Shown here in pieces: positions 5,282-61,670 of a DNA stretch of 64,000 nt. Under the pieces are notes generated by a model. That model made no database searches. It was not told the DNA's origin and worked only from the letters and a program-made list of their open reading frames with translations. Where the stretch lies: NCBI GenBank assembly GCA_035530055.1, contig DATKVN010000010.1:6344-70343 (forward strand). Reading direction: 5' to 3'. This stretch comes from a bacterium. GTDB lineage: Bacteria > UBA6262 > WVXT01. How positions within the stretch are numbered: position 1 is the first letter of the stretch; each line of letters begins with the position of its first letter. The position numbers and the translations under genes were made by a program.

Positions 5282-8010
5282 TTAAGCATTCTCCTTATTT
5301 TTGCCCGTGGTCTCAAATATTTGTACAACTCGCCTAACCATAATACCGAAGACGAAAAAATGATTATAATGAGTATTTCTAATAAACCTAAGGGCACAAA
5401 TTGAAATACGCCTTGGAAAAATGGGACATAAAGTACCATGGCTAACAGAAAAACAGAAGCTATAAGAGATGCGACTATAAAATTATTGCTAAAAAGACCT
5501 ATCTTGAAAATAGATCTTTTAAGTGAACGCATATTTAAAACATTAAATAATTGAGTGAATGCCATAACAGTAAATGCCCCTGTCCTTGCCTTTTCTATTC
5601 CGCTTGGCAAATAGGCATTAAAAATAATTAATGTAAAAATAACCATAATACCGGCCATGATGAGAATGAAAGGGATGATTTCTTTTGATAAAATATTTTC
5701 TTTTGCCTTTCGTGGAGGTTCTTCCAAAACGTCCTCATGACTTGGTTCAGCAGCTAAGGCAACATCGCTAACCCCATCAGTAACCAAATTGAGCCATAAC
5801 AACTGAGTAGGTAGCAATGGCAATGGAAGGCCAAGAAGCATTGTAGTTATAATACTTATACTTTCTGCAAAATTAGTAGTGATTAGAAAAGAACTTGCCT
5901 GTCTTGTATTCGTAAAAACAGTTCTTCCTTCTTCTATTGCATTCACAATAGAAGAAAAATTATCATCAGCAAGCACAATTGCGCTTGATTCCCTTGCTAC
6001 ATCAGTACCAATTATACCCATGGCAACTCCGATATCCGCTCTTTTAAGTGCAGGTGCATCATTAACCCCGTCCCCTGTCATGGCAACAATATGGCCTTGT
6101 TTCTGTAAAGTCTCAACAATTCTTAATTTCATACCAGGAGTTAACCTAGCAAAAATAGAAATATGTTTTATTGTTTCTTCAAACTCTTCTTCTGAAAGAT
6201 TTAGCAATTCTTGTTCAGTAAGAACCTCCGGACGCTTACTTTTTGTCTTTTCGCCAATCATCCCTATCTCTTTAGCGACGGCAACAGCTGTGTCCTTATG
6301 GTCTCCTGTCTTCATAATAACTCTAATACCTGCTTTCCTGGCTTTAGCAATTGCCTCCTTTACTTGGGGCCTTGGAGGATCCAGCATACCAACAACGCCA
6401 ACCAAAACAAGATCATTGACCAAATCTTCTGACAGGTTATCTGTACTGACAGGAGTTATCTTGTAAGCTAAGCCAAGAACTCTCATTGCTTTCTTTGCCA
6501 AACCTTGTATTCCGGCTAGAATTTCCTGTCTCTCTTCTTGAGTTATCTTCTTCTCTCCTTTTTCCCAAAGAATAAAAGAGGAATGGGCAAGAACAGCCTC
6601 GGGAGCTCCGATAACATAAATTTCTTTCTTCCTATCTTCTTCCACAAGTACTGAAAGCGATGCTCTATATTTCAATTCTGGATTAAATGGTAAATCATCT
6701 ATTCTTTTCTCTTTTTCCAGCAACTCTTCTTTCTTTAATCCAGCCTTTTCTGCAAGAGCAACCAAAGCAGCCTCTGTGGGGTCACCAATAATTTTATATT
6801 TTTCGTCCTCTTCTTTTACTATCCTTGCATTATTACAAACACAAGCGATATGTAAAAGTTTTGATAAACGAGAATTTTCTAATGGAGCAATGATGTTATC
6901 TTTTTGAGAAAAATCCCCTGAAGGCTTCCAGCCTTCTCCTGAAACAGTGATTTCATCTTCACCCGGCAAAATTATCTTCTCAACATTCATGGTGTTTTGC
7001 GTTAATGTTCCTGTCTTGTCGGTTGCAATAACTGTTGCTACCCCAAGAGTTTCAGTTGCCGGCAATGTTCTAACAATAGCATTTTTTTTTGCCATCCTGT
7101 AGGCACCAATAGCAAGTACTATTATCAGTACTGCGGGCAATCCTTCCGGAATTCCAGCAACAAGAGAAGCTATTGTAAAAAGAAAAATTTCAGAGAATTC
7201 AAACCCTCTAACAAAAAAACCGACCAGGAATACTATAAATGCACAGACAACCGCAATAATACCCATTTGTCTTGCCAGAATAGCTGTCTTCTTTTCAAAA
7301 TGACCCTTGACTTTTTTTATCTTTTCTATACTAGTAGCTACTTTACCAATGGCTGTTTTAATACCCGTAGATACCACAACAGCCTTAGCCTGTCCGCCGG
7401 CAACAAATGTCCCCATCCATACCATATTCTTACGGTCAGCTAAACCTGTTTTTTCAGGCAGCACTTTAACGTCTTTGTCAATAGGAAGTGACTCGCCAGT
7501 TAAAGAAGCCTCTACTGTCCTGGTGTTTTTCACTTCAAGAAGTCTTGCATCAGCAGGAATTCTGTCGCCCTCTTCTAAGAAAATAATGTCTCCGGGCACT
7601 AATTCTTTCGCATGTACTTGCAGTAATTTTCCTCCTCGGAAAACCTTTGCATAAGGCACAATCATCCTTTTTAAAGCCTGAATTGATCTCTCTGCCTTAT
7701 TCTCTTGAATGAAGCCTATTATGGCATTAATTAGAATTACAGCTAAAATTACATAAACATCAACTGCATGGCCAATGAAAAATGAAATGGCAGCAGCGGC
7801 AATAAGGATATAAATTAGAATGCTATGAAATTGCTTAAGGAAAATCAGAACAGGATGTTTAGCTTTTTTCTCAGGTATTTCGTTAGGGCCAAAATCCTGT
7901 AAGCGGGTCTTTGCTTCTTTATGCGAAAGTCCGCTTATCCCGGAAGATAATTTCTTCAGCACTTTTTCAACAGGTTCTGAATGAAATGAATTATTTAACA
8001 TCTGAATCAT
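5266..8010 (-). CDS. P-type cation-transporting ATPase (type II, Ca2+/Mg2+-like)
   Basis: 914 aa with DKTGTLT, TGDGVNDAPALK and TGES-like motifs and about 10 TM segments. The 16-bp overlap with the downstream permease suggests an operon. Confidence 0.9.
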   Translation of the reverse strand: MIQMLNNSFHSEPVEKVLKKLSSGISGLSHKEAKTRLQDFGPNEIPEKKAKHPVLIFLKQFHSILIYILIAAAAISFFIGHAVDVYVILAVILINAIIGFIQENKAERSIQALKRMIVPYAKVFRGGKLLQVHAKELVPGDIIFLEEGDRIPADARLLEVKNTRTVEASLTGESLPIDKDVKVLPEKTGLADRKNMVWMGTFVAGGQAKAVVVSTGIKTAIGKVATSIEKIKKVKGHFEKKTAILARQMGIIAVVCAFIVFLVGFFVRGFEFSEIFLFTIASLVAGIPEGLPAVLIIVLAIGAYRMAKKNAIVRTLPATETLGVATVIATDKTGTLTQNTMNVEKIILPGEDEITVSGEGWKPSGDFSQKDNIIAPLENSRLSKLLHIACVCNNARIVKEEDEKYKIIGDPTEAALVALAEKAGLKKEELLEKEKRIDDLPFNPELKYRASLSVLVEEDRKKEIYVIGAPEAVLAHSSFILWEKGEKKITQEERQEILAGIQGLAKKAMRVLGLAYKITPVSTDNLSEDLVNDLVLVGVVGMLDPPRPQVKEAIAKARKAGIRVIMKTGDHKDTAVAVAKEIGMIGEKTKSKRPEVLTEQELLNLSEEEFEETIKHISIFARLTPGMKLRIVETLQKQGHIVAMTGDGVNDAPALKRADIGVAMGIIGTDVARESSAIVLADDNFSSIVNAIEEGRTVFTNTRQASSFLITTNFAESISIITTMLLGLPLPLLPTQLLWLNLVTDGVSDVALAAEPSHEDVLEEPPRKAKENILSKEIIPFILIMAGIMVIFTLIIFNAYLPSGIEKARTGAFTVMAFTQLFNVLNMRSLKRSIFKIGLFSNNFIVASLIASVFLLAMVLYVPFFQGVFQFVPLGLLEILIIIIFSSSVLWLGELYKYLRPRAKIRRMLKWREV

Positions 8011-8109: not shown

Positions 8110-8292
8110 GGGACAGCGACCTATTTTTCTTTCTTGTTCGGATTCTAATTTTGGGGGCAGGTCTTGATTATTGAATAAAAAAGTCATTTTCCTCTGTTTC
8201 TTATCTAAACTAATTTTAGTATAAATGTAAAAAAGTAGCCTGTCCCCCTCTTCTTTTCCTACTTCTGTTAAATTAAATGGTCGCTGTCCCTA
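8110..8292. repeat. About 183-bp element bounded by a perfect 14-bp inverted repeat TAGGGACAGCGACC / GGTCGCTGTCCCTA
   Basis: The inverted repeat was seen directly. The same 14-mer recurs at 45811-45824. The right copy supplies the TAG stop of the 8290-8742 gene. Confidence 0.4.
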
Positions 8293-8742
8293 TTTTCTCG
8301 GATAATTTTTCTTAAGCCAATTAAGAATTATTTCTAAAAATCCTTCTGCCTCTTTAATCAACTCTACGGCTTCCAACCCTGAAATTCCACCAGCATAATC
8401 ATAATCGGTTATATTTCTCTTTGCCCTGCAGGAATCAAAATAATCTGCCAAATCATAATAATCTTTACCCATTATTTCTTTCATTGCTTGAAACACAGTA
8501 AAATGATGCCCTGCACCTTCTGGCTTATATCCCTTGCAATAAAGGAGAATTGTAGCTAATTGTAAGACAGCATTATAAGCAGTAACAAACTTTCTATCCG
8601 CAGAAAGACCCTTTACTTTTGCGTCTTTTATATCCCTCTTTACGAGTTCTAACAAATTGCCGATTTCTTTTTTAGATGTCTTATGCCGCCTTAACTTTCC
8701 TTGATTCAATAATTGCTTTAAGTGCATCATTATCTCCCACAA
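8290..8742 (-). CDS. HEPN-domain protein (second copy; partner of the wHTH-MNT at 8681-9283)
   Basis: 150 aa, homologous to the 1794-2351 protein with the same C-terminal block (CRAKRNITDYDYAGG). Its start overlaps the 3' end of the upstream MNT gene. Confidence 0.5.
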   Translation of the reverse strand: MWEIMMHLKQLLNQGKLRRHKTSKKEIGNLLELVKRDIKDAKVKGLSADRKFVTAYNAVLQLATILLYCKGYKPEGAGHHFTVFQAMKEIMGKDYYDLADYFDSCRAKRNITDYDYAGGISGLEAVELIKEAEGFLEIILNWLKKNYPRK

Positions 8743-9283
8743 TGAACATTTTCTTATCTTTTAAAACTGCCTTAAGAAAATGGTCTTTCTGTTTTAGCCT
8801 CTTTATAAATTCCTGCATAGGAAATACTGCATAGTTAATTTCACGCATTAATTCTCTCTTGGGCTTAGAAAGGATAGTTGAAAGTTCTCTTGAGGAGATA
8901 TCTCCTATTACCATTAAGTCAATATCGCTGGAAAGGCTTTCCCCTCCCTTTGCATAAGAACCATAGATAAAAGCGACTTTAATTCCATTTCCCTCAAGAT
9001 TATCTTTTAGAACTTTGGCAATCCCTACGCTCTTAAATAAGATATTCTTTAATTCTTCAAATATAGGACAGTTTCTGTTTACTTTATAATAGACGCGATT
9101 GCCCCGTGTGGTCTTTTCGATAAGACCAAGACTATGAAGTTTCTCTACCTCCCGTTGAACGCCTCTTATGGACTGGTGGGTAATTGCAGAAATTTCTCTT
9201 TGATAAAAGTTATCTCCGGGATTAAACAGGAATAATTTTAAAATCTCAACCCTTGCCTTTGAAGAAAAGAGTTTATCTATCAT
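8681..9283 (-). CDS. Winged-HTH + minimal nucleotidyltransferase fusion protein (second copy)
   Basis: wHTH (VEILKLFLFNPGDNFYQREISAITHQSIRGVQREV) plus NTase motif IYGSYAKGGESLSSDIDLMVI. The listed ORF begins with a TTG, so the start was moved to the ATG that begins MIDKLFSS. Confidence 0.65.
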   Translation of the reverse strand: MIDKLFSSKARVEILKLFLFNPGDNFYQREISAITHQSIRGVQREVEKLHSLGLIEKTTRGNRVYYKVNRNCPIFEELKNILFKSVGIAKVLKDNLEGNGIKVAFIYGSYAKGGESLSSDIDLMVIGDISSRELSTILSKPKRELMREINYAVFPMQEFIKRLKQKDHFLKAVLKDKKMFIVGDNDALKAIIESRKVKAA

Positions 9284-9303
9284 AAACTGCCTCCATATAC
9301 ATC

Positions 9304-9336
9304 TTGTAGTCAATTATATACAATTTGTAGTCAATT
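9304..9336. promoter_or_regulatory. Direct repeats TTGTAGTCAATT x2, 21 bp apart, upstream of the second wHTH-MNT gene
   Basis: Seen directly at 9304-9315 and 9325-9336. The 21-bp periodicity matches the TATCAC palindromes at the first copy. Confidence 0.4.
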
Positions 9337-9344
9337 GTCAAGCA

Positions 9345-9530
9345 AGTTCTGGGGCAAGTTCTGGGGACACAATACTTTGAAGTTCTGGGGACACAATACT
9401 TAATTATTCTTCTTTGGAACTATGGCATCTGCTCCTTCGTATAACACGCAGACTGAAGTCTGCGACTACTTTTCAAACGCAGACCAAGGTCTGCTACTCC
9501 AAACGCTCCGATGAATCGGAGCTACTCCTT
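9345..9530. repeat. Repeat cluster: three AGTTCTGGGG units, a solo RAYT-family left end (9387-9407), a conserved about 50-bp linker, and three short hairpins ending in CTACTCC
   Basis: GGGGACACAATACTTAATTAT at 9387-9407. Hairpins are GCAGACTGAAGTCTGC, GCAGACCAAGGTCTGC and CCGATGAATCGG, each followed by (G)CTACTCC. The same IR-plus-linker-plus-hairpin module occurs at 12989-13075. Confidence 0.8.
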
Positions 9531-9984: not shown

Positions 9985-9994
9985 GTTTGCTCCT

Positions 9995-10190
9995 GGGGAG
10001 ACAATACTTAATTATTCTTCTTGGGTACTGGTTTCCCCTTTTTTAATACCTTTCCGGTTATTTCCTCAAGTTCGTTGAAAAAGTTTTTCAACATCCAATA
10101 GTCCAGTCGTGTTTGCCTATTATTATATAGAAGATTTGGCAAAATTTTCAAAAGTCCAGCATCGGGTTCAATAATTAAGTATTGTGTCCC
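9995..10190. mobile_element. MITE (about 196 bp) derived from the RAYT element: terminal IRs GGGGAGACAATACTTAATTAT / ATAATTAAGTATTGTGTCCC
   Basis: The ends are inverted copies of the RAYT-element termini. The first roughly 60 bp match the RAYT 3' coding end (TCTTCTTGGGTACTGGTTTCCCC...). It is about 85% identical to the element at 13813-14005. It fills the gap between a response-regulator stop and the rnk-like start. Confidence 0.75.
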
Positions 10191-10210
10191 TGGAATTTTT
10201 CCCCGGAATT

Positions 10211-13163: not shown

Positions 13164-13511
13164 TCATTTTTCCAAATCCTCAAATACCTTTTGGATAAGG
13201 GGTTTAATCATAGAGACATCTTTCTTAACAACCTCCCAGAGAATTTCCAGGTCAACTCCAAAATACTCATGAACCAGCCTGTCCCTCATTCCCGCCATCT
13301 TTTTCCAAGGAACTTCAGGATATTTTTCTCTAATTCTTTTTGGGATATTTTTTGTTGCTTCTCCAATTATCTCAATGGCGCGTACCACTGCATAAATCGT
13401 TTTCTTATCTTTTTTAAATTTATTGAAATTCATACCTTCAGTAAATTTTTCAATGTCATTTATAGAATCAAGAATGTCCTGAATGTAATCTCCATACTCT
13501 CGCTTTTTCAT
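13164..13511 (-). CDS. hepT: HepT-like HEPN toxin (DUF86), type VII toxin-antitoxin
   Basis: 115 aa with the canonical R-x4-H-x-Y motif (RDRLVHEY). It overlaps the mntA stop by 4 bp. Confidence 0.85.
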
Positions 13512-13804
13512 ATATAGACGACCTCCTGTAAGATATGTCTACCGATTCTTGGTTTTAATGCCTTTTTGGAGACAAGATCAACCTTTGCTCCCAATATTTT
13601 CATTAAGTACTCTTCTAGATCCATAAATTCAAAAAGACCTATGGGTTTCTCAAACTCTACAAGAATGTCTATGTCACTCTTTTTTTTCTGTTCATCTCTT
13701 ACAAATGAGCCAAAAATCCCTATCTCTTTCAATTTAAATCTTTTTTTCAGTTCTTGCTTGTGCTTCCTAAGTATATTTTCAATCTTTCTGCGGGTCATGG
13801 CCAT
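13508..13804 (-). CDS. mntA: MntA-like minimal nucleotidyltransferase antitoxin
   Basis: [22 protein letters not shown] matches the GS..DxD NTase motif. The listed start at 13822 lies inside the MITE, so the start is more likely Met7 or Met9 (MAMTRRK) near 13804. Confidence 0.8.
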
Positions 13805-13812
13805 ATAATTCT

Positions 13813-14005
13813 GGGGACACAATACTTAATTGTCTTACTCGCTCCCCTTTTCCCTTTTTAATATTCTTCCCACTATTTCCTCAAGTTTGTTGAAAAAATT
13901 TCTCAACATCCAATAGTCCAGGCGTGCTTGCCTATTGTTATATGGAAGATTTGGCAAAATTTTCAAAAGTCCAGCATCGGGTTCAATAATTAAGTATTGT
14001 GTCCC
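13813..14005. mobile_element. MITE (about 193 bp), second copy; IRs GGGGACACAATACTTAATTGT / ATAATTAAGTATTGTGTCCC
   Basis: Same structure as the 9995-10190 element. Its right IR provides the last codons (GHNT) and the TAA stop of the adjacent B12-radical SAM gene. Its left IR abuts the mntA start. Confidence 0.75.
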
Positions 14006-15279
14006 TGGGCCTTTCCCCGGGACTTTTTGGTATGATAACGACTCCCTAAATTTAATGAACTGTATAGTATTGGGTGACGCTTATTAGCCCAGAATCTTTT
14101 TATTATTGAAGGAAAAGAATCAAATTTATGTCTCGCCCAATGAAAACCTCCCAAAAGTTGGTCAGCAGTCATTCTTAAAGGTTCAAAAACAAGTTTAACA
14201 TTATCATATTTACTCCAATCGTAGCTAAATATTCTACCTTCCTTTTGTAAATCATTAAAGATTTTTGTCCCTGGGTAGGGCGTAAGTAAAACTAATTGTG
14301 CGAAAGCCACTCTAGATTCAATAAGAAACTCAACTGTCTCTTCAAAAATAGATTGATCATCACCATCAAAACCAAAAATTAAACTTACATAAATTAAAAT
14401 ACCTACATCCAGAAACATTTTTATAGCTTCTTTGATCTCTTCTTTACTCTTTAGATTTTTGTGATAACGATTTATTTCTTTAGTAGATACAGATTCTAGA
14501 CCAATAAAGAAACTACAGCAACCAGACTCAGAAGCTAATTTTAATAACTCCCTGTCTTTTACAATATTTATAGCTGATTGCCCTACCCATTTTTTATCCA
14601 TATATTTTAATTCTTTGAAAAGTTCCCTTGCATATTGTTTATTTCCTGTAATGTTGTCGTCTAAAAACATAAGATTTTTCCCTTTAATGGTGGAAATATC
14701 TTTAATTACTTCTTTTATTGGTTTATGCCGAGGACGTGGGCCAAAAAATTTTGTTACTGAACAAAAATCACAATTATAAGGACATCCACGAGTTGTCTCT
14801 ACTGGAACGAGGTTAATAACCCCTGCTTTTCTTTTAACTAAATCTCTTCTGGGTATTACGGAATTATTTAAAAGAGGAAATTCGCTTTTATAAAATTTTT
14901 TTAGCTTATTTTCCTGTACATCTTTTATAACACTATCCCAGATATTTTCTGCTTCTCCAATTACAACAGAATCAGTATATTTTATGGATTCATCCGGTAA
15001 AGTTGTGGGATGAATACCTCCAAGAATGGTCTTTATACCCCTTTCCCTGAACATTATTGATATTTCATAAGCTCTGGGAGCGGTTGCCGTCATGGTTGTT
15101 ATGCCCACCAAATCATATTTCTTGTCAAAATTAATTTTATCCCACGGTTCCTCTACTATTTCAATTTCATGTTCTGGAGGAGTTAATCCCGCCAGTACTG
15201 GCAAAGATAATTGAGGTATATGCAAATTTTTGTGACGATGTTCATCTTTAGGACATGGTGAAATAAATAATATTTTCAT
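13990..15279 (-). CDS. B12-binding domain radical SAM protein
   Basis: 429 aa with an N-terminal cobalamin-binding Rossmann segment (DLVGITTMTATA) and the radical SAM CxxxCxxC motif (CPYNCDFC). Confidence 0.85.
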   Translation of the reverse strand: MKILFISPCPKDEHRHKNLHIPQLSLPVLAGLTPPEHEIEIVEEPWDKINFDKKYDLVGITTMTATAPRAYEISIMFRERGIKTILGGIHPTTLPDESIKYTDSVVIGEAENIWDSVIKDVQENKLKKFYKSEFPLLNNSVIPRRDLVKRKAGVINLVPVETTRGCPYNCDFCSVTKFFGPRPRHKPIKEVIKDISTIKGKNLMFLDDNITGNKQYARELFKELKYMDKKWVGQSAINIVKDRELLKLASESGCCSFFIGLESVSTKEINRYHKNLKSKEEIKEAIKMFLDVGILIYVSLIFGFDGDDQSIFEETVEFLIESRVAFAQLVLLTPYPGTKIFNDLQKEGRIFSYDWSKYDNVKLVFEPLRMTADQLLGGFHWARHKFDSFPSIIKRFWANKRHPILYSSLNLGSRYHTKKSRGKAQGHNT

Positions 15280-15296
15280 TATAAACTCCTAATTAC

Positions 15297-15367
15297 GGGG
15301 ACACAATACTTAATTATGACGCAGGCTGAAGCCTGCGGCTACCGTTTCAAACGCAGACTGAAGTCTG
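15297..15367. repeat. Solo RAYT-family end (15297-15317) followed by GCAGGCTGAAGCCTGC and GCAGACTGAAGTCTGC hairpins
   Basis: Direct sequence match to the other family members. Confidence 0.8.
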
Positions 15368-17035
15368 CTATTCCTTCAGCGCTTTGGCGTTTTTTTCATA
15401 AAATGTAGAAGGCTCATAAACCTGACCGTTAGCAAGTTTTTTTGCCTCTCTTTTCATAGCAAAGTATAGCCCTCTGCCCAATAGTGAAGCCATTATCCTG
15501 GTTTTCCAACCGAACTCCTTGTATAAATCTTGAAGAAGTGAGATGATTTTCTTCGACATAAGTTCGTCTTTCCTGTACCATTTTTTTATCGCCCAAACTG
15601 CTCCCGTATAATAATCGATGGATTTTTTAATCTCCCATTCAAAACGATTACGAATACGTGGATCCGGATGGTTTTTGTATCTTTTCCATCCTATTAGCAT
15701 GGTTCGAATCATTCGGGCAATGCTGGGACCGTTTATCTCGAAGTCCTGACGAAAGGCTCTGAGAAGAAACTCGGTTTCCTGACCATTGTAAATGTGCTTA
15801 TGGCGATAATTAAAGCGGTATTGACCGTGTCTATCTGCGGTGGGACATTCTTCTTCAGACAAAAGACTTCCTTCCTTCAGGAGCTGTTCATGAAGAGGCG
15901 TGCCAGGAGCCGGGATGTACAGCATAAACTGGTGGAAGTCCGTATCATGACTAACTGCCCAATCTATAATTTGATCAATGTTTTCCGTAGTATGGTTTTC
16001 TAAACCGATAATAGTTGACCCCATAACGCGAATGCCATGTGATTGCATATCTTGTACAAACGAGTGGGTATCTATCCCTTTAAGCTTTGCATACTGACTG
16101 TTCTCACCTTCCAGTCCTATCCATACCCAGGAAATTCCCAAACCCACCAGCTGTTTGACTGTATAAAATTTCAGAGCCTTGACAGAACTGAAAACGAACA
16201 AAGACCAACTCTTATTGTGCTGTTCCATTAATTCTAACAACCTTAATGCTCTTTTATGATGTAGAAGAAAGTTTTCATCAAGGATGAAGAAAGACCGACT
16301 CTTGAGCTCTTTTTCAATCTGACACATAATGGAAAAAAGAGAATCTCCAGTTTCATAAAAGTTTATGAATTTCCCCTTACCACCAAATAGGGCAGAAGTG
16401 GAACAAAAATTACAGCCCACCGGGCATCCTACTGATGGTATTAAAATTGCAGCGGTATTTCTTTTTGAAAGAGTTATACCAAAAATACGGCCGCCAAATG
16501 CAGAAAGAACTATTGGATGTCTTACTGAAACGTTTTCATCCTGTCCCAGGAACCTTCGAAACCAGCTGACACCTTCTCCTTTGACAATATAATCCGCATC
16601 AATGATATTATGAATATTGGGTATACTGGCAATATGCCCGCCCACAACAATCGTTGCCTTAGGTAAGTATTTGCGTATCACCTCACACATCTTTTTTGCC
16701 TTCCCGATATTGGGAATAATTGAACTAATTCCAACAATATCATAAGAATGGCTTTGGATTTCATTGGTAAAACGGTCGAGGGTAGGAAAATCTAAAAGCG
16801 TACATGGCGCATCAATGTTTGCCTGAAGCAGCATCAATCCAAATGAACGATGGAACAGGCGAAGAGAAAAAGGACCTTGCTCCCGAGTAACCTGGTTATG
16901 ATAAAGTTCCATCGGGTTAATCTTTCGGCTTCCATATTCATCGTCTTGTGCGTAGGGGCCAAATACGCTGGATAATAAAACTTTAGCTTGAGACTTAAGT
17001 GGATGTACAGGATTACTTGTGTTCATAATATTCAT
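15368..17035 (-). CDS. B12-binding domain radical SAM protein (second, longer paralogous type)
   Basis: 555 aa with a B12-binding segment (DIVGISSIIPNIGKAK...VVGGHIASIP) and CPVGCNFC. Confidence 0.85.
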   Translation of the reverse strand: MNIMNTSNPVHPLKSQAKVLLSSVFGPYAQDDEYGSRKINPMELYHNQVTREQGPFSLRLFHRSFGLMLLQANIDAPCTLLDFPTLDRFTNEIQSHSYDIVGISSIIPNIGKAKKMCEVIRKYLPKATIVVGGHIASIPNIHNIIDADYIVKGEGVSWFRRFLGQDENVSVRHPIVLSAFGGRIFGITLSKRNTAAILIPSVGCPVGCNFCSTSALFGGKGKFINFYETGDSLFSIMCQIEKELKSRSFFILDENFLLHHKRALRLLELMEQHNKSWSLFVFSSVKALKFYTVKQLVGLGISWVWIGLEGENSQYAKLKGIDTHSFVQDMQSHGIRVMGSTIIGLENHTTENIDQIIDWAVSHDTDFHQFMLYIPAPGTPLHEQLLKEGSLLSEEECPTADRHGQYRFNYRHKHIYNGQETEFLLRAFRQDFEINGPSIARMIRTMLIGWKRYKNHPDPRIRNRFEWEIKKSIDYYTGAVWAIKKWYRKDELMSKKIISLLQDLYKEFGWKTRIMASLLGRGLYFAMKREAKKLANGQVYEPSTFYEKNAKALKE

Positions 17036-21329: not shown

Positions 21330-22117
21330 GGGGACACAATACTTAATTATTATTCTTGGGTCCTGGTTTCCCCTTTTTTAATACCTTTCCGGTTATTTCC
21401 TCAAGTTTAGTAATAAATTTATCATCACCTAAAGGTCGACCGGTGCGGGCATGTTCTCTGAAGAGATTCCTATCTATGTCTCTATCGTCTTCAGCAAGAT
21501 ATGATGACCAGTCTTCTATTTCTGAAAGCATAAAGTTATCAGAAAGTAAAATATCCTTTTCTTTCAGAACATGAGCTTTCGCACTCGACCAAGGGTAATC
21601 TTCAGCCCTTTTCACTAACCCTGCTCTTACTGGATTCCGTTCAACATAACGGACAGCCGCATAAAGATACTGCTCGTCCAATGGATAAGATATAAATCGC
21701 CCCTGCCACAGATATCCCCTCCACCCTTCACGGAAATTAATCATGCGGGTATAGTATCTGTGTACCTGACCTATTCCCCTCGCTAAACTGTCTTCATTCT
21801 TGGGGACAGCTATTAAATGCACATGATTATCCATCAAACAATATGCCCAGAAAATTACACCAGCTTCTATGGCATGCTTATATAGAAGATTAATGTAGGA
21901 TTTCTTATCTTGGTCGCTGAAGAATACATTCTGAGAGCGATTGCCACGTTGGATAATATGATGAGGATAGTTAAGTATGACGATACGTGCTATTCGTGCC
22001 ATGACATAATTCTAACAAATCAAGTATCAGAAATCAATAATTAAGTATTGTATCCCGGAAACTGGTGGGACGGAACTGGTGGGGCGAAACTGGTGGATAA
22101 TTAAGTATTGTGTCCCC
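21330..22117. mobile_element. REP-associated tyrosine transposase (RAYT / IS200-like) element with 21-bp terminal inverted repeats and a duplicated right end
   Basis: Left IR GGGGACACAATACTTAATTAT (21330-21350). Right IRs at 22036-22056 (degenerate) and 22097-22117, separated by three GAACTGGTGGG units. It is preceded by the GAGTTCTGGGG x2 micro-duplication. Confidence 0.8.
21343..22002 (-). CDS. REP-associated tyrosine transposase (IS200/IS605 TnpA-like, HuH)
   Basis: 219 aa with the HuH motif (MDNHVHLIAVP) and conserved Y in the YYTRMINF region. The architecture matches RAYT/Y1 transposases. The stop codon lies inside the left IR. Confidence 0.85.
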   Translation of the reverse strand: MARIARIVILNYPHHIIQRGNRSQNVFFSDQDKKSYINLLYKHAIEAGVIFWAYCLMDNHVHLIAVPKNEDSLARGIGQVHRYYTRMINFREGWRGYLWQGRFISYPLDEQYLYAAVRYVERNPVRAGLVKRAEDYPWSSAKAHVLKEKDILLSDNFMLSEIEDWSSYLAEDDRDIDRNLFREHARTGRPLGDDKFITKLEEITGKVLKKGKPGPKNNN

Positions 22118-22157
22118 GGAATTATTTCGCCCCTACGTGATTCGCAAGGATTCCATA

Positions 22158-26391: not shown

Positions 26392-26457
26392 TAACGCAGA
26401 GCGGTCGCTCTGCGGCTACAGGTTGCTGCACAATTTGAAATTGTGCCTACAAATCCA

Positions 26458-26670
26458 ACCTCCCTTTCGGGAGGACTCCAAAGACCCTGGAGTCCTTGCG
26501 AAAGCAAGGTCCCCTATATACCTCCCTTTCGGGAGGACTCCAAAGACCCTGGAGTCCTTGCGAAAGCAAGGTCCCCTATATACCTCCCTCTCGGCAGGAC
26601 TCCAAAGACCCTGGAGTCCTTGCGAAAACAAGGTCCCCTATATACCTCCCTCTCGGCAGGACTCCGGACT
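26458..26670. repeat. Tandem array of 3.4 x 62-bp units, each made of three hairpins (CCTCCC-TTTC-GGGAGG; GGACTCC-N9-GGAGTCC; CCTTGC-GAAA-GCAAGG)
   Basis: Units at 26458-26519, 26520-26581, 26582-26643 and a partial at 26644-26670 are over 93% identical. They lie between the cobO stop and the TonB-dependent receptor start. Confidence 0.9.
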
Positions 26671-30100: not shown

Positions 30101-30268
30101 TTGTAGCCGCAAAGCGTAAGCTTTGCCTCATTTTAGCAGAGCTATCGCTCTGCAGCTACAATTTTATGGGTAGTGTAGCCTTTTATGGTCGTAATCGTAA
30201 TATAATTGTAGTGTAGCCCTTTATGGGCGTAATGTTTACGGGCATAAAGCCCTACACTACAAAAACCA
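30101..30268. repeat. Intra-operon mosaic of hairpin modules (AGCAAAGCGTAAGCTTTGC; GCAGAGCTATCGCTCTGC; GTAGTGTAGCC...GGCTACACTAC doublets)
   Basis: It shares modules with 49179-49340, 57340-57478 and 58590-58660. Confidence 0.8.
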
Positions 30269-36112: not shown

Positions 36113-36298
36113 TTCAGTGCATGCGTTAGAAGGTCTCTGAAAATTCTGGACTCCTTGCGAATCGCGTAGGGGCGACCCTTGTGGTCGCCCGAACCTCCCT
36201 TTCGGGAGGACTCCACAAATTCTGGATTCCTTGCGAGAGCAAGGTTTTTTCCTCCCTCCCTTTCGGGAGGACTCCAAACTCCGATTTTGATAGGGCTC
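36113..36298. repeat. Hairpin-module mosaic (GCGACCCTTGTGGTCGCC; two CCTCCCTTTCGGGAGGACTCC units; CCTTGCGAGAGCAAGG)
   Basis: Members of the CCTCCC/GGGAGG family. Confidence 0.8.
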
Positions 36299-41757: not shown

Positions 41758-41809
41758 CTTTTAGTATTTGGTAGCTCCGATTCATCGGAGCGTCAAGGAG
41801 TAGCAGACT

Positions 41810-42334
41810 TTAGTCTGCGTCCAAGAATTCCTTTTTCAACTCTTCTGGCAATATCTTTCGATTTTCTAAAGTTACCTCAATGAGTTCTACGTCTTCTCTT
41901 TTTCTAATGGCATCAATAAACTTATTGTGTCTTTCCTGGAGTGTGCCGATTACTCTTTTGGAGCTATCGAGTGCTTTAATTACTGCTTCCTGAAATTTAG
42001 GAGAATAGAGTTCCATCCTTCCAATCTCGTCGATGAGGATAATCTTTTTCTTATCATCATTTACAGCAAGAGAAATGCTCCTCCCGGCAATATTCTCTAA
42101 ATCTTCAATATTAACTCCGTATTTCCCTACTCGATAAGGGCTGTTTAAAGCTTTATAAGCTAAGATTCCCTTTTTACCCCTGAGAGTAATAATCCTGAAT
42201 CCTTTCCTCTCCCCTTGCTGGCGAATCTCCTCAGTATAGAATCCTCCCACTTCTTTCAACCCGCTAATCAATTTCATAATAACTGTGGTCTTTCCCACAC
42301 CGGGTCTACCGGTGAAGAGAATGTTCTTCTTCAT
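41810..42334 (-). CDS. NTPase, THEP1/COG1618-like P-loop protein
   Basis: 174 aa with the P-loop FTGRPGVGKTT. Confidence 0.65.
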   Translation of the reverse strand: MKKNILFTGRPGVGKTTVIMKLISGLKEVGGFYTEEIRQQGERKGFRIITLRGKKGILAYKALNSPYRVGKYGVNIEDLENIAGRSISLAVNDDKKKIILIDEIGRMELYSPKFQEAVIKALDSSKRVIGTLQERHNKFIDAIRKREDVELIEVTLENRKILPEELKKEFLDAD

Positions 42335-47169: not shown

Positions 47170-47533
47170 TATCGTCGATATAGGATAGAATAGCAAAAGA
47201 ACTAAAATTTGTCAATTAAAACTGTCTACTTGACTATTTATACTAATTTTGAGGGTCTTAAGTGGAGGGAGCTTGATTTTCTGGGAAGCTGTGCAGGCTT
47301 TAGTTTTTGGAGTCCTCCCGAAAGGGAGGAAAGCAAAAAGTTGTAGCTCGAGAGCGACAACTCTGCATTGTAGGGGCGGCACTCCGTGGCCGCCCAAATG
47401 AAGGGACGGCACAGAATCCGTCCCCTACAGAGAGGCAAAGCTTACGCTTTGCTGCTACATTTTTGAATAACCCTTGCTTTCGCAAGGACTCCATAGGTTG
47501 TGAAATGTTCCGATGGATCGGAGCTACTCCATA
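47170..47533. repeat. About 360-bp intergenic mosaic of hairpin modules
   Basis: Modules in order: GGAGTCCTCCCGAAAGGGAGG; GAGAGCGACAACTCTGC; GGGGCGGCACTCCGTGGCCGCCC; GGGACGGCACAGAATCCGTCCCC; GCAAAGCTTACGCTTTGC; CTTGCTTTCGCAAGG; CCGATGGATCGGAGCTACTCC. Confidence 0.85.
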
Positions 47534-47854: not shown

Positions 47855-47960
47855 CCCCCTCGCCCCTGGCCGTGGCTCGTGCCACCCTGGCCGTTAAGGC
47901 CCAGAATGGACAGGCGCACAGGCAGGCCTAACTCTCTCCCCCAAGGGGGATAGGGAACTT
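47855..47960. repeat. Repeat family CCTGGCCGTGGCTCGTGCCA...GGCAGGCCTAACTCTCTCCCCCAAGGGGGA
   Basis: A second copy with about 80% identity lies at 54140-54235. Confidence 0.7.
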
Positions 47961-47972
47961 TTTTCCCATTTG

Positions 47973-49178
47973 TCAAATCTCTTCCCAAAGGAAGAGTTGT
48001 TTGTCTATTTCTGGTTCGAGTTCCTTCTTTGCAGGATAAAATTTTCCATTTAGAGTTATAAATTTTCGTGCTCGTTTAACAACCGTGCCCAACTTTTTCA
48101 ACTGTTCCAGTTCCTTCAATTTAGTGTTTTTCCTTATATCCAGAATTTTCCTAGCTGATATTCTACCAATTCCAGGAACTCTGATCAGTTCTTCGAACGA
48201 AGCTTTATTTATTTCTACCGGAAACCTGTCTGTATTACTTAAAGCCCATACTAACTTGGGGTCTTTATCCAGATAGAGATCCCCTTTCTCATCAAAAATC
48301 AATTCCTCTGGAGTGAAATTATATTTCCGTAAGAGAAAATCGGCCTGATAAAGACGGAATTCTCTCAAAGGAGGACAAGGACGCAAGTTCTCCAAAGGAG
48401 TATCTTCTACCGGAGTGAAAGCACTGTAATAGACTCTACGAAGGTTATGGCCTCTATAAAGATTGTGACTCAGAGAAAGGATTTCCTTATCCCCCTCCTT
48501 TGCCGCTCCTACTACGAGCTGAGTGGTCACTCCTCCTTTCAAGGGATGTTTCCCATGAAAAGAGGCAATCTTCTTCAACCCATCGAGCAGTTCTCGATGG
48601 AAATTCTTATCCGCAGATAGTTCAGAAAGGCATTTCTGGTTTGGTGCTTCTAAGTTCATAGAGAGCCTATCTGCTAATCTTCCTGTGGCTTCGATGAGGC
48701 CAGTATCTACACCAGGCAGAATTTTACAGTGTATATATCCCTGGTAATTATACCGTTGCCTTAAAATCTTTAGAGTCCCCAGCATCTTTTCTTGACTGGC
48801 ATTAGGAGAAACATTTATTGCTGAAGAAAGAAAAAGCCCTTTAACCCACCTTTTCTTATAGTATTCCAGGAAAAGAGAAGCAAGCTCTTGAGGTGTGAAT
48901 TCTATTCGAGGACAATCTCTGTCTTTCCTATTTACGCAGTAGAAGCAGTTGTTCTCGCAAAAATTAGTTTGCAGAACTTTAAACAGATTTATACATTCAC
49001 CTTTTTGTCCTGCCGCAGGATAGATGAGACTGGAACGGGCAATGTGTTTCTTAGGGAAAATAGCCAGGGGGAAACCAGTTACATCGAAGCCAGCCAGTTC
49101 TCCCAATAAGTTTGCTTTATGATGTAAATTCTGTTTTTTCATACTCAAATTACGGGCATAAAGCCCCTGGGCGACCAT
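47973..49178 (-). CDS. Putative DNA modification/repair radical SAM protein (TIGR03916-like) with C-terminal HhH
   Basis: CENNCFYC (CxxxCxxC) and a C-terminal helix-hairpin-helix (FEELIRVPGIGRISARKI). Confidence 0.7.
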   Translation of the reverse strand: MVAQGLYARNLSMKKQNLHHKANLLGELAGFDVTGFPLAIFPKKHIARSSLIYPAAGQKGECINLFKVLQTNFCENNCFYCVNRKDRDCPRIEFTPQELASLFLEYYKKRWVKGLFLSSAINVSPNASQEKMLGTLKILRQRYNYQGYIHCKILPGVDTGLIEATGRLADRLSMNLEAPNQKCLSELSADKNFHRELLDGLKKIASFHGKHPLKGGVTTQLVVGAAKEGDKEILSLSHNLYRGHNLRRVYYSAFTPVEDTPLENLRPCPPLREFRLYQADFLLRKYNFTPEELIFDEKGDLYLDKDPKLVWALSNTDRFPVEINKASFEELIRVPGIGRISARKILDIRKNTKLKELEQLKKLGTVVKRARKFITLNGKFYPAKKELEPEIDKQLFLWEEI

Positions 49179-49340
49179 AAAGGTCGCCCCTACGCGACCA
49201 AAACATTATCCGTAGTGTAGCCCTTTATGGGCGTAATCTCTACGGGGACAAGCCCCTACACTACTTACATTGACGCACCGTTACGGACATAAAGACCTGC
49301 ATTGCCAATGAAGCAGAGCTTCGCTCTGCTGCTACATTCG
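49179..49340. repeat. REPIN-like doublets: TACGGGCATAAAGCCCCTG ... GTAGTGTAGCCCTTTATGGGCGTAAT...TACGGGGACAAGCCCCTACACTAC plus GCAGAGCTTCGCTCTGC
   Basis: Inverted pairs begin with GTAG. The same unit occurs at 30170-30265 and 58595-58650. Confidence 0.8.
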
Positions 49341-49428
49341 TTTACCAGAATGAGCGCCTATACTCCTTTACTTTTTCTTCTTTTTTGGCTTCTTCTTCTC
49401 TCTCTTGGCCGGTACTTTCCCTGGCATA

Positions 49429-49929
49429 CTAATCACCACCCCTTTTTCCAAGTTTTTCCATTAAGATAGGAAGATTAACAATGTCTTCTTTATTATACTC
49501 CAGTAACACTTGTAAGGCCTTTTTGTTATTTTCTTTTTCGTATTGGTACCATAGTTCCATAGCTACCCAGCCATCTACCTCTTTCAGGCGTCTTTTAATT
49601 CCTAGTATTTGTTCGACTTTTTTTAAACCACCATAAAGATTTCTTTCCCAGCAGTCGTACATCAAGTCGTAGGTTGCGAAAAAATCATCCAAATCTACAC
49701 TCAGCTTCTCCTTTATGACCGGGAGATCAAACCTGCTCCCATTGTAAGTGTAAATGGCAGTTGTCCCCACAAGGCTCTTAAGCAAGTTTGGCTTGGTAAT
49801 TTCTTTTCCCACTAACTGAATTAGCGTGCCATCCCCGCGATATATTCCCAGAACAGTTATTTCTCCTTCAAATGAGGTCTCAATGTCCAGAAAAGCTTTC
49901 ATAATTCGTCTTTCTACCGGAGCAAACAT
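49429..49929 (-). CDS. RNase H-like 3'-5' exonuclease domain protein (COG3359/YprB-like)
   Basis: FLDIETS ... YNGSRFDLPVI ... YNKEDIVNL matches the DEDD-type exonuclease motifs I, II and III. Confidence 0.6.
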   Translation of the reverse strand: MFAPVERRIMKAFLDIETSFEGEITVLGIYRGDGTLIQLVGKEITKPNLLKSLVGTTAIYTYNGSRFDLPVIKEKLSVDLDDFFATYDLMYDCWERNLYGGLKKVEQILGIKRRLKEVDGWVAMELWYQYEKENNKKALQVLLEYNKEDIVNLPILMEKLGKRGGD

Positions 49930-51922: not shown

Positions 51923-51934
51923 CCTATATATACG

Positions 51935-52047
51935 CAGGCTAAAGCCTGCGGCTACCATTTATTATTGGGTAGTCGCAACCTTTAGGTTGCGTTATGTACG
52001 CAGACTAAAGTCTGCTACTCCTAAGACGCTCCGATGAATCGGAGCTA
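51935..52047. repeat. Hairpin modules (GCAGGCTAAAGCCTGC; GCAACCTTTAGGTTGC; GCAGACTAAAGTCTGC; CCGATGAATCGG, each followed by (G)CTAC)
   Basis: Same family as 9440-9530 and 42385-42440. It abuts the rnhA stop. Confidence 0.8.
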
Positions 52048-54521: not shown

Positions 54522-54554
54522 TTAAAAAGAATTTTCAAAATTTTCCAACGCAGA

Positions 54555-54666
54555 CCAAGGTCTGCTACTCCACAGTCTTTTGGAGTAGCGAAACTTGTTT
54601 CGCGTTAATAACAAGGTCTGCTACTCCACAGTCTTTTGGAGTAGCGAAACTTGTTTCGCGTTAATA
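54555..54666. repeat. Perfect tandem duplication, 2 x 56 bp (AAGGTCTGCTACTCCACAGTCTTTTGGAGTAGCGAAACTTGTTTCGCGTTAATAAC)
   Basis: Each unit contains the nested inverted repeat GCTACTCC...GGAGTAGC and GCGAAAC-TT-GTTTCGC. A single copy occurs at 61600-61660. Confidence 0.9.
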
Positions 54667-54735
54667 ACGCAGAGCAATCTCTGCTTATTCCTTTTAAAAT
54701 AATTATAATGCGATAATGAAATTTTGTCAAGAAGT

Positions 54736-58589: not shown

Positions 58590-58660
58590 TAAGTTGTAGG
58601 TAGTGTAGCCCTTTATGGGCGTAATTTTTACGGGGACAAGCCCCTACACTACCAATTTAA
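58590..58660. repeat. REPIN-like GTAG doublet (GTAGTGTAGCCCTTTATGGGCGTAAT...TACGGGGACAAGCCCCTACACTAC)
   Basis: Third copy of this unit. Confidence 0.8.
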
Positions 58661-61589: not shown

Positions 61590-61670
61590 TTTCGCAAGGA
61601 CTCCATTGTTTCTGGAGTAGCGAAACTTGTTTCGCGTTAATAACGCAGAGCAAGCTCTGCTACTCCATTG
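61590..61670. repeat. Hairpin modules (CTTGCTTTCGCAAGGACTCC; GGAGTAGCGAAACTTGTTTCGC; GCAGAGCAAGCTCTGCTACTCC)
   Basis: Single copy of the 56-bp unit that is duplicated at 54555-54666. Confidence 0.8.

Follow-up and report, generated by a model that had tools for sequence, protein, structure and literature searches.

GTAG-headed inverted doublets as probable dimers of a REP family associated with a clade of RAYT genes in uncultured bacteria

The 64,000-nucleotide stretch of bacterial DNA analyzed here (the window) carries three inverted doublets that are very probably head-outward heterodimers of a GTAG-tagged REP family, similar to REPINs and BIMEs, tied to a clade of ~155-aa RAYTs and derived from REPtrons. 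A sequence-only reading had picked out the doublets as a second repeat family, separate from the repeats of the window's own Y1 transposase gene. This is borne out, as GTAGTGTAG units bracket a different RAYT clade in related genomes. The same reading had proposed looking for a RAYT gene flanked by GTAG doublets, and such genes, the 155-aa clade, were found in related MAGs and metagenomes.

The doublets are 53 nt in length and have the layout GTAGTGTAG-CCCTTTATGGG-CGTAAT..TACG-GGGGACAAGCCCC-TACACTAC. Doublet 1 (30208-30260, plus strand) combines a GTAGTGTAG-CCC-TTTAT-GGG-CGTAA unit with an inverted GTAGTGTAG-GGC-TTTAT-GCC-CGTAA unit, the heads facing outward. Doublet 2 (49212-49264, plus strand) is a heterodimer of a CCC-type unit and an inverted GGGG-CTTGT-CCCC-type unit, and doublet 3 (58600-58652, plus strand) is identical to it in type; the right half of doublet 1 (TTTACGGGCATAAAGCCCTACACTAC) differs from both. 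Pairwise identity among the three is 89-100%, and the sequence originally quoted for the doublets is present at all three sites, within limits slightly narrower than those first given. Two partial copies accompany them on the plus strand: a slightly degenerate solo left unit, GTAGTGTAGCCTTTTATGGTCGTAA, at 30170-30194, and at 49150-49166 a headless unit body, TTACGGGCATAAAGCCC, lacking the CTACACTAC tail.

Read from its GTAG end, the unit consists of GTAGTGTA, a hairpin with a stem of 4 bp and a loop of 5 nt, and CGTAA. Written out, it is GTAGTGTA-G CCC TTTAT GGG C-GTAA, that is, a short stem-loop with GTAG at one end, and its head is a tandem GTAG-T-GTAG. In a doublet, a CCC..GGG unit is followed by an inverted unit of the GGG(G)..CCC(C) type and the GTAG heads face outward; in the three doublets of the window, the CGTAA and TTACG arms are 3-5 nt apart. 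The GTAG heads and the inverted orientation had been described correctly, but "imperfect palindrome" is slightly off the mark as a name for the unit, with its perfect 4-bp stem and 5-nt loop.

Chance does not account for these sequences. The 11-nt head GTAGTGTAGCC occurs five times in the window with at most one mismatch, against 0.29 occurrences expected, and none of 100 shuffles matched this count; the unit body TTACGSSSAYAARSSSC occurs seven times, against 0.02 expected. All seven units found in 78 kb (the window plus flanks) are intergenic. The window has a G+C content of about 40% and almost all of its genes on the minus strand, and every doublet copy lies between co-directional minus-strand genes: doublets 1 and 3 are 9-10 nt past the stop codons of cobS (30269) and of a CoA ligase gene (58662), respectively, and doublet 2 is 34 nt ahead of the start codon of a radical-SAM gene at 49178. 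Orientation relative to flanking genes is strongly skewed, 26:2 overall and 19:2 when nested copies are left out, counts that are not fully independent because some sites are orthologous. Copy number looks moderate, with the seven units in 78 kb and 15 exact 25-mers in WJOT01, the nearest species-representative MAG.

The units behave as hairpins. Among 22 distinct unit variants taken from all loci, the 4-bp stem is retained through C-G/G-C flips at three of its four pairs; 90.9% of cells are paired, as opposed to 64.7% in shuffles (none of 500 shuffles was as high, and slid controls were lower). This covariation shows that the unit is constrained to form a hairpin. As single-stranded DNA, the three doublets are predicted to fold with z-scores of -3.3 to -5.6. 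The prediction for doublet 1 is one long hairpin (-14.6 kcal/mol, z = -5.6). For doublet 2 it is a mini-cloverleaf (z = -3.3), and because their unit stems are flipped, doublets 2 and 3 alike are predicted to form an 8-bp outer stem with three small hairpins. ARAGORN finds just two ordinary tRNAs in the window, so the cloverleaf-like fold is not that of a tRNA-like gene. The solo unit at 30170-30194 does not fold by itself, because its stem is mutated. Searched against Rfam, the whole window gave no match at the gathering threshold and the span 49120-49360 none at E<=1, and a related locus (L009) had no meaningful match at permissive E-values.

Terminators and CRISPR were considered and rejected as readings of the doublets: no T-run follows any doublet, the spacing is not regular, and Rfam has no match. 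The GC-rich hairpin followed by a T-run that marks an intrinsic terminator is not found at the doublets, and a terminator scan of 49100-49450 returned as its sole candidate an unrelated hairpin at 49182-49199.

The only Y1 transposase gene of the window (21343-22002, minus strand; Pfam Y1_Tnp, 4e-10) encodes a protein of 219 aa. Perfect 21-bp inverted repeats, GGGGACACAATACTTAATTAT (GGGGACAC-type), enclose the gene, the left one at 21331-21351 on the plus strand and its partner at 22098-22118, and no GTAG unit adjoins the gene. On the NCBIfam model REP_Tyr_transpos (NF047646) the protein scores 62.3 bits, below the cut-off of 80 by which RAYTs are recognized, and it is only 26% identical to the RAYT associated with the GTAG doublets. 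The start of the GGGGACAC-type repeats fits the GGGGWSAS motif of the terminal inverted repeats (TIRs) around TIRYT genes (PMC3733652). The gene had earlier been taken for a single RAYT gene with different ends of its own. There is indeed one Y1 gene with its own GGGGACACAATACTTAATTAT repeats, but the name RAYT does not survive the score and the TIRs. Judged by its fit to the published class, the gene would be better termed a TIRYT, and it is probably not the cognate enzyme of the GTAG doublets. It resembles the TIRYTs of TIRtrons (PMC3733652) in being longer than RAYTs, in its GGGGWSAS TIRs, and in the moderate abundance of its TIR repeats, a system unrelated to the GTAG doublets.

The first 22 kb of the window are scattered with short derivatives bounded by GGGGACACAATACTTAATTAT repeats (1700-1786, 9989-10198, 13807-14013), some of which retain the gene's 3' end. 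Within 14 kb there are three nucleotidyltransferase/HEPN (MNT-HEPN-like) gene pairs, at 8290-9313, 13164-13822, and 1794-2965, each beside GGGGACAC-type repeats. Otherwise 100% identical contigs (L127-L129) align to the window as two blocks that overlap by 25 nt at 1702-1726; the overlap lies over a tandem AAATTCCGGGG motif (1688-1726), and the alignment points to probable variation in repeat copy number at this motif.

The enzyme that does go with the doublets is a RAYT of about 155 aa. Members of this clade, bracketed by GTAGTGTAG units and doublets, were found at locus L078 (MAG CAYOFG01) and at L119-122, L123, L125/126, L133-139, and L213. At L078, the gene is a 172-aa Y1 open reading frame just downstream of ligA, immediately preceded by one unit and immediately followed by two units and a doublet. 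A further doublet (6851-6903) lies in frame after the HUH motif and adds about 18 aa. On NF047646 (cut-off 80), the score of the L078-type protein is 83.2 bits without these 18 aa and 76.7 bits with them; on transpos_IS200 (NF033573) it is 32 bits against a cut-off of 55. The residues H69 and H71 (HxH) and Y128 (the tyrosine of YDH) are invariant in 33 RAYT sequences of what is a small family, with 139 matches. The translated doublet (…HLHFLC-SVGVYPRKDYAHKGLHY…) is common to eight close homologues with identities of ~73-94% in the alignment. Inserts encoded by a doublet were noted in proteins P0121-P0125, P0128, and P0130, that of P0123 being longer still and encoded by repeats. Several other homologues have spurious N-terminal extensions that are translations of upstream units (HKGLHY, GLVPVK).

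The association between GTAG units and this clade is shown by how the two vary together. Contigs with homologues 54-94% identical all carry units of the doublet family around the RAYT gene, and in Chloroflexota a 38%-identical homologue lies between copies of a different GTAG REP. A blind, profile-guided scan of metagenome contigs produced 80 loci, of which the top 38 were examined. Where the RAYT is at least 50% identical, GTAGTGTAG units lie on both sides of the gene (7 of 7 metagenome loci); at 40-44% identity the units are related but visibly diverged (GTAGTCTAGCCCCTTGTGGGCG; GTAG-YMTAG-CCCC-TTGT-GGGCG); and below 40% most loci are without such units. Thus enzyme and repeat co-vary.

When both Y1 proteins were compared by tblastn with the window and 118 loci, L078 and L063 alone yielded the cognate RAYT. 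No copy turned up in the window plus flanks, which represent 78 kb of the source genome, nor in 145 kb (8-kb blocks) belonging to the two closest MAGs. The extra 14 kb of flank came from metagenome contigs of ENA (ERZ27256808, ERZ27256810) and JGI (Ga0307376) that match the window at 100% identity, and it contained no units and no RAYT. Some lineages have the gene at the ligA locus and another has it displaced, and it is absent from the ligA-DUF362 locus of three more, reached through their LigA homologues (JBHIBS01, JABAOC01, JABAOF01). With that locus empty in three relatives, the RAYT gene may be missing from the source genome as well.

A scan of one genome per species encountered the 25-nt left unit in 118 stretches from 22 assemblies, and doublets of at most 60 nt account for 44 of the 122 matches in other genomes. 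According to their record titles, the 22 assemblies are "Clostridia bacterium" MAGs, Thermodesulfovibrionales, Candidatus Edwardsbacteria, Endomicrobiales, WOR-3, Omnitrophota, Thermodesulfobacteriota, and unclassified bacteria. Identity to the window is 94-98% for WJOT01, ~95-96% for DAOVHK01, and 79% for CAZTSA01. The LigA protein of L078 (4555-6597) is 81-100% identical to proteins inside its own clade, and those next closest are from Candidatus Omnitrophota, at 61-68%; the Y1 protein of the window likewise has matches in Omnitrophota and Elusimicrobiota. Going by sequence similarity, the NCBI label "Clostridia bacterium" looks doubtful for this group of MAGs.

How the doublets may have arisen can be read from JAJOKM01, a Thermodesulfovibrionales MAG in which the unit occurs 23 times, at least 12 of these copies taking the form of a MITE of ~135 nt composed of a unit, a RAYT remnant, and an inverted unit. 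The remnant retains the first ~20 and last ~6 codons of the gene and occurs with two different deletion junctions. The dimer is itself nested in a further inverted repeat, GGTTCTTCTCCAAA..TTTGGAGAAGAACC (L010, L031, L044, L066, and about 20 other loci), and the MITE often lies at contig ends and therefore breaks the assembly. The 53-nt doublet has the structure of the JAJOKM01 dimer with the spacer cut to a few bases, which indicates that doublets derive from gutted REPtrons. In several genomes doublets are nested inside another MITE. A palindromic element of ~125 nt, GGATGAAGGGATAGTT...AACTATCCCTTCATCC, encloses the doublet in related MAGs (L009 3510-3770, L012, L008, L017, L025, L027, and others), sometimes in tandem at a spacing of 138 nt and without a match in Rfam; it was not found in the window.

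Comparison with relatives gives some idea of how old the copies are. Doublet 2 occupies an orthologous site in both DAOVHK01 (L105) and WJOT01 (L114), its right unit being different in WJOT01, and doublet 3 has an orthologous copy in WJOT01 (L006). Since both of the comparable doublets are at the same sites in genomes ~95% identical, no recent insertion of a doublet is seen. The intergenic region of doublet 1 in the 79%-identical CAZTSA01 contains units of the doublet family in another arrangement. Comparison of the window with its relatives revealed no plain doublet that fills a site in one genome and is missing from that site in another. Whole units do differ among four near-identical JGI contigs beside the RAYT gene, gains and losses that could come from unequal recombination rather than transposition. 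Whole-element differences between the window and its ~95%-identical relatives also mark the hairpin clusters at 47330-47480, 47885-47975, and 49265-49310.

The doublets are not the only GTAG-headed hairpins of the window. Among 4-mers just 5' of hairpins, GTAG ranks second in enrichment (42 cases as opposed to 15.4 expected, 2.7-fold); it heads 27 of 127 intergenic hairpins versus 15 of 403 in coding sequence, and the intergenic ones show at least nine different stems. The earlier view that the genome has more than one REP lineage is therefore right, considering that about 30 GTAG-headed hairpins in the window have other stems. These further hairpins are GC-rich, bear GTAG (often GGAGTAG) at one end, and have stems unlike those of the doublets (for example at 9447-9522, 15320-15368, 41774-41818, 47374-47452, 51933-52045, 54550-54684, and 61620-61660). 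They probably represent additional REP families with RAYTs of their own. Hairpin repeats from different families also share the span 49179-49340 with doublet 2. One hairpin, GTAG-GGGCGACC-TTTAT-GGTCGCCC (49169-49193, minus strand), belongs to another family, of a type resembling the REPs around a 38%-identical RAYT in L148. A third family is represented by GTAGC-AGCAGAGC-GAA-GCTCTGCT (49312-49335, minus strand), beside which the window has a 38-nt block missing from L105 and L114. Hairpins with a second type of head, GGAGTCC (CCTCCCTTTCGGGAGG-ACTCC / CCTTGCGAAAGCAAGG), occur at 26453-26668, 33728, 36188-36278, 43993, 47466, and 61578 and include a 62-nt tandem array of four copies.

What became of the doublets in the source genome is less clear than where they came from. 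Perhaps they are fossils, REPINs whose RAYT has been lost, immobile relics possibly kept for some host role, such as stabilizing the 3' ends of mRNA. This has a real but lesser chance of being correct. It would account for the failure to find a RAYT in ~78 kb of the source or 145 kb of its closest relatives, for the vacant ligA locus in three related lineages, for the conservation of doublet positions across ~95%-identical genomes, and for the degeneracy of the solo unit at 30170 and of the right half in WJOT01. The absence of the gene is, however, judged from a limited portion of the genome, the doublets are still 89-100% identical with intact hairpins, and neighboring repeat clusters are still turning over. 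Alternatively, the doublets might be structured RNA or DNA selected by the host (terminators, mRNA stabilizers, or protein-binding sites) and not substrates of a transposase at all. Their position 9-10 nt past stop codons in two of three cases, the strong bias in orientation with respect to transcription, the stable predicted folds, and the covariation of the hairpins are all in keeping with such a role, but there is no T-run, the terminator scan gives only an unrelated hairpin, and Rfam offers no match. The bracketing of RAYT genes, the MITEs with RAYT remnants, and the nesting inside other repeats would moreover be left without explanation. We consider it unlikely that host selection is the whole story, though a secondary host role is compatible with the REP/RAYT explanation.

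Two other enzymes might be invoked. The 219-aa Y1 transposase (21343-22002) is the sole Y1 enzyme in the window and is related to RAYTs (62 bits on NF047646), and some TnpA-REP enzymes tolerate variation in substrate (PMC8266576). Yet its ends are 21-bp GGGGACAC-type inverted repeats with MITE-like derivatives of their own, in the published TIRYT pattern, the protein shares just 26% identity with the RAYT clade that co-occurs with GTAGTGTAG units, and the gene has no adjacent GTAG unit; it is thus a most improbable agent for mobilizing the doublets. Nor is it at all likely that the doublets are ends or derivatives of an insertion sequence of the IS200/IS605 type (PATE-like) rather than REPs. 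Both kinds of Y1 enzyme do use hairpins with a 5' guide tetranucleotide, and the MITE with the RAYT remnant is multi-copy and resembles an insertion sequence. The protein, however, scores 83 bits on the RAYT model and 32 (cut-off 55) on transpos_IS200, and both ends of the element are one unit inverted, in place of the distinct left and right ends of such insertion sequences. There is also no tnpB gene, and the RAYT is single-copy in conserved chromosomal contexts.

In the favored explanation, in which the doublets are REP dimers tied to the 155-aa RAYT clade, genes for these HUH/Y1 enzymes sit between inverted units, and deletion of the gene would leave a doublet behind. By analogy with the TnpA-REP enzymes that have been studied, the RAYT may bind the unit strand-specifically, as a single-stranded DNA hairpin, reading the 5' GTAG, and may then cut at a nearby dinucleotide, CT or CA, and rejoin the ends. 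Units and doublets would in this way be moved or copied without target duplications, probably on one strand at a replication fork. The three doublets of the source genome would be old residents, common to genomes ~95% identical. A RAYT encoded at another place in the genome may serve them in trans, or they may be orphaned.

Every structural feature of the doublets has precedent in the literature on GTAG REPs and REPIN-RAYT systems. GTAG REPs, head-to-head heterodimers, REPtrons, TIRtrons, and intragenic REPs have all been described (PMC3733652). The units share with the GTAG REPs of Di Nocera, De Gregorio & Rocco (2013, PMC3733652) the form of a short stem-loop with GTAG at one end, and the dimers share the outward GTAG, spacers of 1-5 bp, and the pairing of units with unlike stems (PMC3733652). 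Also familiar are the location between unidirectional genes, the occasional nesting in longer palindromes, the occasional in-frame insertion into a gene (PMC3733652), and, from the REPtron, a RAYT gene flanked by units (PMC3733652). The present family differs from known GTAG REPs (PMC3733652) in its tandem GTAG-T-GTAG head and very short 4-bp stem. A sequence family with GTAGTGTAG and a 4-bp stem was not found in the literature, the literal head matching only unrelated papers on tRNA fragments and oligonucleotides, and Clostridia, Firmicutes, and Thermodesulfovibrio go unmentioned in PMC3733652.

The likeness extends to enzymes. TnpA-REP recognizes REP hairpins in single-stranded DNA, requires GTAG, and cleaves at CT/CA (PMC8266576). 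E. coli BIMEs with TnpA-REP (PMC8266576; PMC3479197) likewise have two REP types in inverted orientation (Y and Z in E. coli) with GTAG 5' of the hairpin, and that enzyme, like members of the present clade, is a Y1/HUH protein with a conserved HUH motif and tyrosine. The stems of E. coli REPs are longer, with a required bulge, unlike the 4-bp stem here. REPINs (Bertels & Rainey 2011, PMC3116915; Bertels et al. 2017, PMC5581495) are similarly two inverted REPs with a short spacer and a joint fold; they too have a cognate single-copy RAYT in a chromosomal context bracketed by matching REPs (in the present case, in relatives), and non-autonomous derivatives. The flipped stems within the doublet set it apart, giving a predicted mini-cloverleaf instead of one long hairpin. 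So does its distribution: a single 25-mer extends across 22 species-level genomes labeled as several phyla, with RAYTs down to ~54% identity, whereas REPIN-RAYT systems are described as mostly vertically inherited. What is new, then, is the family of sequences together with the hosts that carry it, a unit that hardly varies across labeled phyla and across RAYTs down to ~54% identity, and the RAYT sub-clade with a translated doublet.

GTAG REP and REPIN-RAYT systems have been studied almost exclusively in Proteobacteria. These results extend them to uncultured lineages about which little is known, and they provide a natural series that begins with the REPtron, passes through the gutted REPtron that keeps a RAYT remnant, and ends with the minimal doublet of 53 nt. 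In annotation, they explain part of the dense hairpin repeats that break the assemblies of these MAGs, and they tell apart two Y1 systems that share one genome, the TIRYT with its flanking TIRs and the GTAG REPs. It is conceivable, and we suggest it only tentatively, that one REP/REPIN family and its RAYT clade spread horizontally among uncultured anaerobes of several phyla (labeled Clostridia/Omnitrophota-like, Thermodesulfovibrionales, Edwardsbacteria, Endomicrobiales, and WOR-3), the 25-nt unit remaining nearly invariant while the enzyme diverged to ~54% and one RAYT sub-clade came to carry a translated REPIN just after its HUH motif. Long-term horizontal transfer of RAYTs has been suggested earlier in the literature. 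If the wide distribution does reflect horizontal spread, it would qualify the view of REPIN-RAYT systems as essentially vertically inherited, and the present system would be unlike the vertically inherited, lineage-specific ones described so far.
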